IMG/VR virus record: IMGVR_UViG_2579779049_000020
DNA from: a virus
Lineage: Duplodnaviria > Heunggongvirae > Uroviricota > Caudoviricetes
Length of the DNA: 5,053 bases
Reading direction: 5' to 3' (one strand)
Position 1 is the first letter of the stretch; every line of letters begins with the position of its first letter. Below, piece after piece: positions 1,757-3,330 of the stretch. The notes under the pieces are model-generated. The model was not told where the DNA came from and made no database searches. It saw nothing but the letters and a program-made list of their open reading frames with translations. Both the position numbers and the translations under genes were made by a program.

Positions 1757-1788
1757 CTTCATCGTCACATAGCTGGTAACCAGTGGCC

Positions 1789-1803
1789 TGAAGAGACGTT
1801 TGG
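1789..1803 (+). repeat. 15-bp direct repeat TGAAGAGACGTTTGG, copy 1 (upstream of ORF 1817..2158)
   Basis: Exact 15-mer seen at 1789..1803 and again at 2160..2174. Confidence 0.9.
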
Positions 1804-1816
1804 GTAAGGAGGATAG

Positions 1817-2158
1817 ATGGCGTTCAATGACCTTGAATATCAAGCAGTAAAAAAAGAAGTTCACCAATTCATTGAAAGCATAAGGCCGCCTGAACATATC
1901 CGCAATGAACTGGATATTGTTTATAGCATCAATGACCAAACGATAGATATCGGCGAACAGCGCCCCGTGTGGCAGGGCAATCCAGGTGAAACAAACATCC
2001 TGCCATCAGCAAGAATCAAGTACATACGTTCTCTGGATAGATGGAAAATCTATTGGATGCGGAAGGATATGAAATGGCATCAGTACAGTACTGAACTTTC
2101 GCTGACTGATGCGCTTGAGCTTGTGCGTGCTGACCCGGATTGCTGCTTCTTCGGATGA
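1817..2158 (+). CDS. Hypothetical protein, 113 aa; accessory gene immediately downstream of cI
   Basis: Track ORF 1817..2158 (+) with a strong Shine-Dalgarno AAGGAGG (1806..1812). There is no terminator between cI and this ORF, so it is likely co-transcribed with cI. It contains a W-rich motif WKIYWMRKDMKWHQY. I have an unverified impression of a DUF3024-like family. Confidence 0.7.
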   Translation: MAFNDLEYQAVKKEVHQFIESIRPPEHIRNELDIVYSINDQTIDIGEQRPVWQGNPGETNILPSARIKYIRSLDRWKIYWMRKDMKWHQYSTELSLTDALELVRADPDCCFFG

Positions 2159-2159
2159 G

Positions 2160-2174
2160 TGAAGAGACGTTTGG
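2160..2174 (+). repeat. 15-bp direct repeat TGAAGAGACGTTTGG, copy 2 (2 bp after the ORF 1817..2158 stop)
   Basis: Exact match to 1789..1803. Together the two copies bracket the ORF and its Shine-Dalgarno precisely. Confidence 0.9.
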
Positions 2175-2183
2175 ATGATGGAT

Positions 2184-2207
2184 GGTCGCAGAGATGCGGC
2201 CTTTTTT
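2184..2207 (+). terminator. Intrinsic terminator ending the cI / ORF113 transcript
   Basis: 7-bp stem GGTCGCA/TGCGGCC (one G-U pair) with a GAGA loop, followed by T6 (2202..2207). Confidence 0.7.
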
Positions 2208-2219
2208 ATTGAGAGTGGA

Positions 2220-2259
2220 TCTTGAACGGAAATTCTCAAGACTTGAGTCTTGCATGCAA
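2220..2259. promoter_or_regulatory. Cluster of palindromes upstream of ORF 2311..2832 (candidate operator)
   Basis: Inverted repeat TCTTGA (2220..2225) and TCAAGA (2236..2241), a further CTTGAG (2242..2247), and a perfect 10-bp palindrome TTGCATGCAA (2250..2259). Confidence 0.4.
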
Positions 2260-2278
2260 ATCAATTCCTGGATAAACT
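2250..2278 (+). promoter_or_regulatory. Candidate sigma70 promoter for ORF 2311..2832
   Basis: -35 TTGCAT (2250..2255), a 17-bp spacer, and -10 TAAACT (2273..2278). The -35 is embedded in the 10-bp palindrome. Confidence 0.45.
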
Positions 2279-2310
2279 CGATCTGAGTCAATAACTTAGA
2301 GAGAGAGCAA

Positions 2311-2832
2311 ATGGCAAAGTCAAACGTTAGCGTGCAGGCATTCAAGGACTTCCTTGAAGAGCTTATGTCGCTGAACATAATGAAGGAGGCCACCGCTCGA
2401 AATTTAAAAAACTCATCCGCTCGCCTCTTAACGGTAGTCCAAGAAGAGGAAATGGGTGATGTTACTCAGCTTGATGTGAATGAGCTTGCCGAGCGATACA
2501 TCAACGCAACTGAGCCGAAGCCTAGCGACAGCAGCATTACTGCATATAAAAGCCGCATGGAAAGTGCAATCAAAAAGTTTGTAGCTTTCCAGTCTGGTGA
2601 AGAAATCCCATACACTCCGATTGACAAAGAATCCAGTGAGGAAAAAGATTTGACTGGCGAACCAACAAAAGTCGAAGGCAAGGCTAATGCACTTCATACC
2701 TATGATCTTCCAGTAGTTCTTCGACCTGAATCAGGGGTTACAGTAACGATTAAAGGCATTCCTAACGATATCACAAACGAAGAAGCCGAACGCATCTCTT
2801 CAATTCTGAAGGTTTACGTTCGGCCTCAATAA
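2311..2832 (+). CDS. Hypothetical acidic soluble protein, 173 aa; second accessory gene between cI and PL
   Basis: Track ORF 2311..2832 (+) with a GAGAGAG Shine-Dalgarno-like run upstream. No transmembrane-like hydrophobic stretch is visible and I recognise no family. Confidence 0.7.
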   Translation: MAKSNVSVQAFKDFLEELMSLNIMKEATARNLKNSSARLLTVVQEEEMGDVTQLDVNELAERYINATEPKPSDSSITAYKSRMESAIKKFVAFQSGEEIPYTPIDKESSEEKDLTGEPTKVEGKANALHTYDLPVVLRPESGVTVTIKGIPNDITNEEAERISSILKVYVRPQ

Positions 2833-3005
2833 TGCAAAAGCATTCAGCACAATGTCCAACTCCCCAGTCCGACATTGATGCTGTTTAACCAGAGCCTCCA
2901 AAAGGAGCCCTTGTTAAGGTACACAATATTTGCGATGTAACCTTAGCGCGTCTGGTACATTTTTTCAAGCGGTTGTAGGGCTGCCGCCAATATGAGAAAA
3001 CACAG

Positions 3006-3128
3006 ATGTCTACATACAATTTGAATGACCAATTCGATCGAGAAGTTCATGTGAATGCCTATGAACGGATAAGGCATGGAAATCTTGAACATGTGTGTGA
3101 GCATTATCGCTCAAGGCCACACCGCTAA
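3006..3128 (+). CDS. Possible small ORF, 40 aa (MSTYNLNDQFDREVHVNAYERIRHGNLEHVCEHYRSRPHR)
   Basis: An ATG-to-TAA ORF that ends 6 nt before a strong intrinsic terminator. The Shine-Dalgarno is weak. It is below the ORF-track length cutoff and is speculative. Confidence 0.2.
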   Translation: MSTYNLNDQFDREVHVNAYERIRHGNLEHVCEHYRSRPHR

Positions 3129-3133
3129 TCATC

Positions 3134-3162
3134 AACCCGGCCTCCATGCCGGGTTTTCTTTT
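3134..3162 (+). terminator. Intrinsic terminator
   Basis: Stem CCCGGC (3136..3141) / GCCGGG (3148..3153) with a 6-nt loop, extended by A-U pairs, followed by TTTTCTTTT (3154..3162). Confidence 0.7.
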
Positions 3163-3330
3163 CCTCTCGCCCAAAAAAAACACATAACCAATTGTATTTA
3201 TTGATGTAACTCGCTAAACCATGCAGTTATGATCCCTGCCGCATAACCTTCATCAGCCACATTTTCAAAAATAAATTTCCTTATATATCAGAATCATACT
3301 TCGTAGAGTTAATAAATCACCAAAATTCGT

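Follow-up and report, generated by a model that had tools for sequence, protein, structure and literature searches.

The 1.4 kb of DNA between the repressor gene cI and the early leftward promoter described here is genuine accessory DNA, and it is composed of two separately exchangeable units rather than one cassette. The stretch analysed, referred to as the window, is 5,053 nt long and is a 100% match to the Stx2a prophage of E. coli 95NR1. The interpretation favoured here, which, the roles that it gives to the units included, has about an even chance of holding, is that two independent accessory units (‘morons’) have come together as a mosaic at the cI-to-N hot spot of lambdoid phages.

The slot is bounded by cI (1049-1756, + strand, from the list of open reading frames) and, on the other side, by a PL-like promoter (3342-3370, found by promoter scan) and the N gene (3620-4003; Pfam N_peptide, 2e-15). 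Between them lie ORF113 (1817..2158), ORF173 (2311..2832) and ORF40 (3006..3128), all on the + strand. The list of open reading frames and a terminator scan located these genes, and two intrinsic terminators, where the first-pass annotation had put them. It had also credited ORF113 and ORF173 with good ribosome-binding sites; this is true of ORF113 (a strong AAGGAGG at 1806-1812), but the site of ORF173 (GAGAGAGAG) is weaker, and that of ORF40 (GAG), read directly from the sequence, is likewise weaker than that of ORF113. The assignment of the slot as a hot spot equivalent to that of rexAB agrees with published positions; rexAB, bstA and stk of phage 933W have all been described as occupants of the interval between cI and N (PMC8585504; PMC3564112).

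The GC content of the accessory DNA (0.42-0.46) does not differ from that of its flanks, so composition gives no hint of foreign origin. The three proteins all lack membrane segments (maximum Kyte-Doolittle hydropathy 0.63, 0.72 and -0.66), which removes the commonest mechanisms of superinfection exclusion. No protein matched a validated defence component, the sole PADLOC match being that of ORF113 to PDC-S43, and none of the accessory proteins has a family in NCBIfam. Searches with ORF113, ORF173 and the family profile against the sequences of solved structures returned nothing below an E value of 0.07. Judged from genome position only, a defence role for the units is plausible; for the ORF173 unit, a regulatory role is equally open.

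Up to the first terminator hairpin, the left part of the region (cI and ORF113) is identical to 933W-type prophages; from that hairpin onward, the DNA on the right, with ORF173 and ORF40, matches VT2-Sakai without a difference. The recombination joint lies inside the hairpin itself (2184..2207), and the whole region was found at 100% identity in one of 5426 complete E. coli genomes. The two genes also occur apart. DUF3024, the family to which ORF113 belongs, is present without ORF173 at four loci (L003, L011, L012 and L013), and ORF173 is present without DUF3024 at loci of Serratia, Cronobacter, Yersinia and Salmonella. At several other ORF173 loci no adjoining repressor was detected, and the neighbours resemble replication or nin genes, tail genes, or dinI at the prophage edge. 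When the immunity regions of related prophages were compared, the presence and absence of each unit varied separately.

These observations bear on the earlier proposal that ORF113 and ORF173, alone or joined by ORF40, work together as a single exclusion or defence cassette. The two genes are adjacent both in the window and in Morganellaceae prophages (L005-L008, L020, L046 and L047), and both occupy the rexAB-equivalent position. However, they are separated by a functional-looking terminator, their distributions are independent, and the combination seen in the window was made by recombination at that terminator; furthermore, ORF173 and ORF40 are intact in VT2-Sakai and E. coli EC2001 despite the decay of ORF113 in both. 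A single cassette is thus largely refuted by distribution, and we consider it very improbable.

A relic of a lambda/VT2-Sakai-type cI end, comprising the last eight codons and the stop (QWPEETFG*; 1781..1807, + strand), starts 24 nt beyond the stop codon of the 933W-type cI that is resident here; the cI of VT2-Sakai ends in QWPEETFG on the same DNA. A repeat search revealed a 15-nt exact direct repeat, TGAAGAGACGTTTGG (family D9), the first copy of which lies within this relic (1789-1803, + strand) and the second at a 3′ end of cI (2160..2174, + strand). Since the two copies flank it, ORF113 is placed between two cI ends, ahead of the terminator at which the cI transcript ends. L042, a Salmonella relative that lacks DUF3024, has a cI-type C-terminus (QWPDEIFG*) with the same terminator within ~60 nt after it. 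In the window, scanning and folding place this terminator of the cI-ORF113 transcript at 2184..2207 (+ strand; stem 2184-2201 followed by a U tract); the segment 2176-2215 folds with -13.3 kcal/mol (z -3.3), and none of 200 shuffles was as good. In agreement with the first-pass annotation, the + strand scan found no terminator between cI and ORF113, and ORF113 is co-transcribable with cI. From its location between the cI end and the terminator of the cI transcript, ORF113 would be produced in the lysogen from PRM (and PRE). As it has no promoter of its own, it is more aptly regarded as an insertion within the cI operon.

The p24-p23-stk block of 933W shares this left-hand arrangement, but from the terminator hairpin on, ORF173 and ORF40 replace p23, stk and a small ORF. 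Stk of 933W is reported to be co-transcribed with cI and to abort infection by HK97 (PMC3564112). The 933W-type sequence has the same hairpin but no U run, and leads on into p23 and stk, whereas the window hairpin carries a U tract, so that read-through is not expected. A test for a protein kinase domain gave no Pkinase match among the window proteins. With lambda rexA/rexB the window has in common the slot between cI and PL/N, and it would also share expression in the lysogen with the repressor and dispensability for phage growth (PMC8585504). In contrast to lambda, the window holds two unrelated, separately transcribed units; its proteins have no sequence or PADLOC match to RexA or RexB, and none has a hydrophobic segment, whereas RexB is a multi-pass membrane protein. 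BstA of the Salmonella prophage BTP1 is likewise encoded downstream of cI, is highly expressed in lysogeny and keeps conserved synteny with repressors (PMC8585504). It has no homology to the window proteins, however; BstA is large and has for its self-immunity a DNA element (aba), to which nothing comparable was found in the window.

ORF113 is a soluble alpha/beta protein of 113 aa (phrog_3467). The Pfam and PADLOC searches that had been proposed for it identify it as DUF3024 (PF11225; 108.9 bits against a cut-off of 24.9, residues 4-113 on profile positions 2-112) and as the candidate PDC-S43 (E value 5e-42, residues 1-113 on 1-115). The statement that neither ORF113 nor ORF173 is a known defence component therefore stands as regards validated families, but not as regards listed candidates. 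PDC systems are untested predictions that derive from genes lying within BREX, DISARM or type I restriction loci. Although the match to PDC-S43 is full-length, the gene belongs here to a prophage immunity operon and not to a restriction or BREX locus; no embedding in BREX, DISARM or type I restriction was seen in the window or in any close relative examined. The close DUF3024 relatives examined are all in prophages, usually directly 3′ of the repressor. A literature search found no paper mentioning DUF3024.

Expression of ORF113 in the lysogen is hinted at by work on a related phage. In phi24B, P3 (13472 Da) and P2 are encoded downstream of cI, with a lysogen-type RNA profile (PMC3342100). ORF113, which is identical to the 933W-type protein, has a mass of 13473 Da. 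The earlier claim that ORF113 is made in the lysogen is helped by the detection of a phi24B lysogen protein of matching mass, but the scores fall short of significance: the MASCOT score carried no flag of significance, and the ANOVA was not significant (PMC3342100). ORF113 may be a small, non-enzymatic protein that most likely acts by binding another protein, and its role would be to protect the lysogen, either by exclusion of other phages or by an abortive response to them. A frameshift has turned the gene into a pseudogene in both VT2-Sakai and E. coli EC2001, which indicates that ORF113 is dispensable. In 219 E. coli genomes with the greater part of the region, 217 matches share one identity band (90-95%) and, by this sequence criterion, are taken to be the same decayed copy.

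A different role for ORF113, in modulating prophage induction, can be envisaged. It would dampen RecA-stimulated cleavage of cI in the manner of 434 Hex or PsiB, and it resembles Hex, which has the same genomic position, in being a small protein on the PRM transcript beside cI (PMC3564112). Judged by description, the two are set apart in that Hex is reported to overlap part of the repressor frame (PMC3564112) whereas ORF113 is a separate downstream gene. This role is improbable.

Unit 2 has the make-up of a self-contained operon: a sigma-70 promoter with an overlapping palindrome comes first, then ORF173, then a folded leader, with ORF40 and a terminator at the end. It may be expressed in lysogens. 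As is typical of morons, the ORF173 unit has its own promoter and flanking terminators, and varies in both presence and genome position. The promoter (2238..2278, + strand) consists of a -35 element, TTGCAT (2250-2255), a 17-nt spacer and a -10 element, TAAACT (2273-2278). In the window it scores only 7 of 12 and was overlooked by a generic promoter scan. Nevertheless, the first-pass annotation was right to give ORF173 its own promoter: a promoter-like site is kept at the same place in 16 of 18 relatives, with the -10 element ending 25-35 nt before the ATG. The promoter had also been called palindrome-decorated. Two short palindromes, AAGACTtgAGTCTT (2238-2251) and TGCATGCA (2251-2258), can indeed be read from the sequence on the + strand, but they are weak and too short for the repeat search. 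In relatives, inverted repeats of 13-27 nt extend over the -35 element and differ between ORF173 subgroups. The palindrome was also considered as a cI operator, which was ruled out by the occurrence of the same palindrome beside different cI alleles. The unit is closed, upstream of OL/PL, by an intrinsic terminator at 3134..3162 (+ strand), found by scanning and folding and annotated as rho-independent in AP000422; the segment 3126-3170 folds with -14.3 kcal/mol (z -4.4), again with none of 200 shuffles as good. Equivalent terminators are located 3′ of the small ORF in all relatives.

The predicted structure of ORF173 (173 aa) comprises a four-helix core-binding (SAM-like) domain of the tyrosine-recombinase type (residues 1-95), an acidic disordered linker (101-129) and a small beta-beta-alpha C-terminal domain (130-166). 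The model is of moderate confidence, with a pLDDT of 67 overall and ~55 in the C-terminal domain. Matches to the core-binding fold include MrpR and SroF. ORF173 is predicted to share this domain with tyrosine recombinases, MrpR and SroF, but sequence similarity is under Pfam thresholds, and in place of a catalytic domain ORF173 has an unrelated beta-beta-alpha domain of 40 aa. A catalytic domain with an active-site tyrosine is absent; there is no Phage_integrase match and the protein ends at residue 173. On this model ORF173 resembles a DNA-binding protein devoid of catalysis more than it does an effector, and reading it as an exclusion or defence effector is not supported. ORF173 may bind the palindrome at its own promoter and so repress itself.

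ORF173 is 100% conserved across Stx phages, and its family comprises 652 clusters of full-length members, which are 160-200 aa long. A broad alignment of the family held no conserved stretch usable for scanning, and a scan of genome contigs found a single locus, in Proteus mirabilis. No paper mentioning L0084 was found in a literature search. ORF173 represents a large family of recombinase-like putative DNA binders that lack a catalytic domain and have operator-like sites of their own.

Every relative of ORF173 is followed by a spacer of 150-175 nt, then by a short conserved peptide gene and then by a terminator. The conserved spacer between ORF173 and ORF40 was overlooked in the first-pass annotation. 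In the window this spacer or leader (2833..3005, + strand) is a candidate structured RNA, here called type 1, delineated by folding and by alignment of relatives. It contains a hairpin, P1 (2845-2883), a long-range helix (ACCAGA/TCTGGT) that has two hairpins inside it, a U-rich tract that includes the motif UCAAG, and a final hairpin directly before the ORF40 ribosome-binding site. Its minimum free energy is -52.5 kcal/mol (z -2.9), and RNAalifold, run on eight relatives, predicts 45 pairs, five of which show compensatory changes. The leader would set the output of ORF40. More distant relatives have at the same position a type-2 spacer, which shows strong covariation and is a structured RNA; one example is L053 5517-5668. 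A covariance model of type 2 (R1) gave 35 strong matches, of which 34 start immediately behind a homologue of ORF173 and the remaining one (L076) is a remnant, and gave none in 35 unrelated loci. The window spacer was also considered as a type-2 RNA; this assignment was dropped after the model failed to detect it at 2833-3005, even with filters off. Likeness between the two is limited to position, helix order and the motifs UAGCG and UCAAG.

Searches of Rfam 15 gave no match with an E value of up to 1 in the window, and none at the equivalent position in six relatives; the type-2 spacer is a covarying structured RNA that is so far uncatalogued there. The RNAs described in the EHEC sRNA literature belong to other prophage sites. 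A metagenome pattern scan for the type-1 spacer returned 120 stretches, of which two were real, the pattern being too unspecific.

ORF40 encodes a His/Cys-rich peptide of 40 aa (phrog_21154; H0092 of VT2-Sakai). What had been listed as a possible ORF is a real gene: across a 25-codon core in five relatives there are 88 synonymous and 19 nonsynonymous codon differences, indicating purifying selection. The small-ORF position is occupied in relatives by one of three unrelated small peptides. Selection on ORF40 also speaks against the view that the region is decaying filler without function, retained by hitch-hiking with cI. ORF113 is a pseudogene in VT2-Sakai and EC2001 and no part of the region has an assigned function, as filler would predict, but the complete conservation of ORF173 across Stx phages, the size of its family, and the conserved promoter position, RNA helices and terminators make such a view extremely unlikely.

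The ORF173-leader-ORF40 unit could be a regulatory device, with ORF173 acting as a transcription factor like the integrase-like phage repressors and ORF40 as its co-factor. That it has this design is possible though doubtful, and so, to a similar degree, is the suggestion that its targets are prophage or host genes involved in lysis-lysogeny, integration/excision or lysogenic conversion. The core-binding fold, with MrpR and SroF among its matches, the variation of the promoter palindrome with protein subgroup, the absence of an effector-like domain and the occurrence of the unit beside replication/nin-like genes all favour a device of this kind. On the other hand, the three peptide types are swapped while ORF173 and the spacer stay, a pattern closer to that of exchangeable cargo than to that of a fixed co-factor; the unit shifts between genome positions as a moron does, and no target sites were identified.

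To return to unit 2 as a moron, it may tentatively be seen as an undescribed three-part accessory system, in which a DNA binder devoid of a catalytic domain and a structured RNA of ~150 nt, not in Rfam, would jointly control an exchangeable zinc-type peptide. The block would be mobile between temperate-phage hot spots across Enterobacterales, with a protein family of at least 652 clusters.

The cI-to-N slot of lambdoid prophages has already yielded rexAB, bstA and stk, and its uncharacterised occupants are a good hunting ground for new lysogen functions; among them, ORF113 is a defence candidate with published hints of lysogen expression. The genes of both units are present in Shiga-toxin prophages of E. 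coli O157:H7; ever since the VT2-Sakai record (AP000422), their annotation has been that of hypothetical genes. Should either unit prove to influence superinfection, induction of the prophage or the control of host genes, it would bear on the spread of Stx phages and on toxin release.

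The stretch between the cI stop codon and a PL-like promoter (3342–3370) occupies the rexAB position of lambda in a prophage of E. coli 95NR1, whose chromosome matches the window with 100% identity over 5053 bases. The host prophage carries stx2a, Q, nin genes, a toprim replication gene, cII, cro, cI, N, cIII, kil, gam, bet, exo and int; in the window cII (308–604) and cro (743–970) lie on the minus strand and cI (1049–1756), encoding an S24 peptidase domain and an HTH, on the plus strand. The first-pass annotation saw here a rexAB-equivalent slot and a recurring site for exclusion functions. 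This view stands: the cI-to-N region is a hot spot of mosaic diversity, home to rexAB and bstA (PMC8585504). The kinase of 933W is reported to be co-transcribed with cI and to abort HK97 infection (PMC3564112).

ORF calling recovered ORF113 (1817–2158), ORF173 (2311–2832) and ORF40 (3006–3128), all on the plus strand and as first described, and a terminator scan recovered both intrinsic terminators (2184–2207 and 3134–3162; folding z -3.3 and -4.4 versus shuffled sequence). The same scan found no terminator-like site at the cI–ORF113 junction, and the ribosome-binding site of ORF113 is indeed strong (Shine-Dalgarno AAGGAGG, 1806–1812). The observations of the first-pass annotation therefore hold, and its interpretation is supported in part: a single exclusion or defence cassette at 1757–3170 is not borne out, the region being recombinant and the anatomy supporting two separate lysogen-side accessory units.

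This structure emerges from an alignment of the window with a 933W-type O157:H7 prophage, VT2-Sakai and E. coli EC2001. Positions 1740–2201 are identical to the 933W type; identity to VT2-Sakai starts in the first terminator hairpin, at its loop, and continues rightward. The 933W-type copy of this hairpin has no U tract and leads into a gene for a 153-aa protein, the stk kinase and a small ORF, and its counterpart in the window is followed by UUUUUUAUU. An exact 15-nt direct repeat, TGAAGAGACGTTTGG, brackets ORF113 (1789–1803 and 2160–2174), its first copy lying inside a relic of the last codons of a VT2-Sakai/lambda-type cI (QWPEETFG, stop); these repeats place ORF113 after the cI end and before the terminator that closes the cI transcript. 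The ORF113 copies of VT2-Sakai and EC2001 share about 88% identity with it and are disrupted by two single-base deletions, whereas ORF173 and ORF40 are 100% identical to the window, again showing that the two units are under separate selection. Of 5426 complete E. coli genomes, 540 match some part of the region. At least 80% of it is present in 219, with 217 matches among these in the 90–95% identity band, like VT2-Sakai, and 95NR1 alone matches the whole at 100% identity.

Profile searches of the kind proposed in the first-pass annotation assign ORF113 over its full length to Pfam DUF3024 (2e-31), to phrog_3467 and to the PADLOC model PDC-S43 (5e-42). PDC systems are untested candidates, put forward because one member of the family lay within a BREX, DISARM or type I restriction locus (bioRxiv 10.1101/2024.01.29.577857). 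The literature search returned no mention of DUF3024 and a single paper on PDC-S43, which only lists it in an O157:H7 genome. Close relatives of ORF113 lie directly 3' of prophage repressors of varying type in Proteus/Providencia, Rouxiella and Kluyvera. In a Rouxiella badensis prophage (L011, 5352–6648) two DUF3024 genes follow the repressor; behind the first comes a DUF333-like fragment of 25 aa, and behind the second a DUF333 gene of 88 aa. An Erwinia prophage remnant, with no repressor called, holds a DUF3024 gene between a DUF333 gene and a 933W-like block of 153-aa gene plus kinase.

ORF113 was expected to be made in the lysogen, and published proteomics agrees. Two proteins encoded downstream of cI, P2 (17096 Da) and P3 (13472 Da), were seen by 2D-PAGE in phi24B lysogens by Riley et al., with RT-qPCR profiles like that of cI, albeit with a MASCOT score carrying no significance flag and an ANOVA that the authors found not significant (PMC3342100). 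The computed mass of ORF113, identical in sequence to the 933W-type protein, is 13473 Da, and that of the neighbouring 153-aa 933W-type protein is 17096 Da, equal to P2; P3 is thus very probably the ORF113 protein. ORF113 would be translated from the repressor transcript, and its product is small and soluble and shows no features of an enzyme. That it controls induction in the manner of Hex or PsiB seems improbable to us. Our best guess is a protective role, suggested by the recurrence of the gene behind repressors, by its occurrence in the 933W Stk block and by its standing as a PDC-S43 candidate. Separately, p23, the 153-aa protein between DUF3024 and stk in a 933W-type prophage (L003, 3726–4187), has a weak RuvC-like Pfam match (E 0.042), and one stk-carrying RefSeq record lists a 'RuvC family protein' in the stretch that was matched.

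ORF173 heads an operon that is autonomous and mobile. Its homologues in a word-indexed search are all from Enterobacterales, and a profile search of cluster representatives gave a family of 652 clusters; the best 150 are nearly all 160–200 aa long and matched over their full length. Among 57 family members scanned, four Phage_int_SAM families gave 14 Pfam matches in total, the best (E 3.6e-4) below Pfam thresholds. ORF173 has no catalytic domain, and no membrane segment was found in ORF113, ORF173 or ORF40. Homologues of at least 52% identity, and one 35% group, occupy the cI-to-N slot, some accompanied by DUF3024 and some not. Near a group of 41–46% identity neither repressor nor N was detected; its neighbours, judged by sequence, appear replication/nin-like in some loci and tail-gene-like in others. 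One ORF173 copy adjoins dinI at a prophage edge.

The separate promoter proposed for ORF173 stands, although its palindrome decoration is weak in the window. In 16 of 18 relatives the top-scoring sigma-70-like site within the 90 nt 5' of the gene occupies the same position (-35 TTGnnn, spacer of 17–18 nt, -10 TA(A/G)A(C/A)T, ending 25–35 nt before the ATG); in the window it is weak (TTGCAT at 2250–2255, TAAACT at 2273–2278; 7/12), and operator-like repeats there are just AAGACTtgAGTCTT and TGCATGCA. Inverted repeats over the -35 vary by protein subgroup: in loci L053 and L062 the arms measure 16–27 nt, while L073 and L047 have other repeats. A cI operator was ruled out, as the same palindrome stands beside different cI alleles; we infer that ORF173 binds the palindrome at its own promoter. 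GATC (Dam) sites recur in or beside this promoter (window, 2281–2286, just after the -10; L053, L058, L062, L073), and in the 41–46% group the -35 is TTGATC and flanking inverted repeats include TCGATCGA.

A constant order is found 3' of every ORF173 homologue: a spacer of 150–175 nt, a short ORF and an intrinsic terminator. The short ORF is of one of three unrelated types, namely 40–44 aa, His/Cys-rich and of the ORF40 type (phrog_21154); 47 aa with CxxC...CGC and a weak treble-clef zinc-finger match; or 57–61 aa (phrog_33859). ORF40, at first only a possible ORF, is a true gene: its 25-codon core shows 88 synonymous versus 19 nonsynonymous codon differences across five relatives (E. coli, Salmonella, Cronobacter, Yersinia and one further locus).

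The spacer is conserved as DNA even where the proteins share 35–45% identity, and has no Rfam match in the window or in six relatives. For 21 distinct sequences of the 'type 2' form, found in Proteus, Serratia and distant loci, RNAalifold gives 31 pairs in six helices. In this alignment 96.2% of cells are paired, against 33–48% with partners slid by 1–3 columns, and compensatory changes occur at 14 pairs against 1–4; none of 500 shuffles reached the observed values for four of five measures. The comparison somewhat favours the structure, since it was derived from that alignment. A covariance model of these sequences gave 35 strong hits (E of 3.5e-13 or lower), 34 of which begin right behind the stop codon of a same-strand ORF173 homologue, and none in 35 unrelated metagenomic loci. 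The window spacer ('type 1', 2833–3005) folds at -52.5 kcal/mol (z -2.9), with five compensatory pairs from eight low-diversity sequences. It resembles type 2 in helix order and in the short motifs UAGCG and UCAAG, and went undetected by the type-2 model, also with filters off; homology of the two types is no more than plausible.

Among close relatives the loop of the first spacer hairpin occurs in both orientations, as exact or near reverse complements: ccaactccccagtcc in the window (2857–2872) and L040, and c(a/g)gactggggagttgg in the Salmonella relative L042 and in L048. Likewise, the type-2 P1 loop is ttggcg in L058 and cgccaa in L059. The mixing of orientations across lineages suggests that the loop flips recurrently between its inverted stem arms. 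The remaining type-2 match is a truncated, reverse-oriented copy (59.9 bits) without an ORF173 gene in a viral contig (L076, 1598–2770), where it adjoins two other genes, of 207 and 133 aa, that fill the cI-to-N slot. Judged from sequence, the 207-aa protein is taken to be SocA/Panacea-like. This remnant resembles a scar left by the replacement of an ORF173 unit.

Beyond the slot, N (3620–4003, plus strand; 127 aa; Pfam N_peptide 2e-15, phrog_271 3e-39) is unannotated in RefSeq, which records just a 69-nt pseudogene, 'regulator, incomplete', at the 3' end of the ORF. Directly 3' lies an Nmad5-family gene (4065–4688, plus strand; 'nucleotide modification associated domain 5', Pfam 2.7e-71), missing at the same position in the 933W-type arrangement. 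A 21-nt direct repeat of 76% identity links the OR region (1036–1056) with the PL region (3346–3366), and 3331–3363 holds a perfect 11-nt inverted repeat, ACCAATAGTTC/GAACTATTGGT; both are consistent with cI operators shared between OR and OL. Rfam matches to the lambda cIII thermoregulator were found in Serratia-type and Salmonella-type prophages (L051, 7354–7408; L040, 9205–9263), one scoring 49.3 bits (gathering score 50) and the other 25.8 bits.

The VT2-Sakai record had already brought the sequence into databases, and the slot is an established hot spot. New are the modular dissection, the size of the ORF173 family, its assignment to a predicted recombinase core-binding fold without the catalytic domain, and the uncatalogued structured RNA tied to it. 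The ORF173 unit has the appearance of a DNA-binding switch that regulates itself, equipped with a structured leader and an exchangeable peptide cargo, and readings of it as defence and as regulation fit the evidence about equally.
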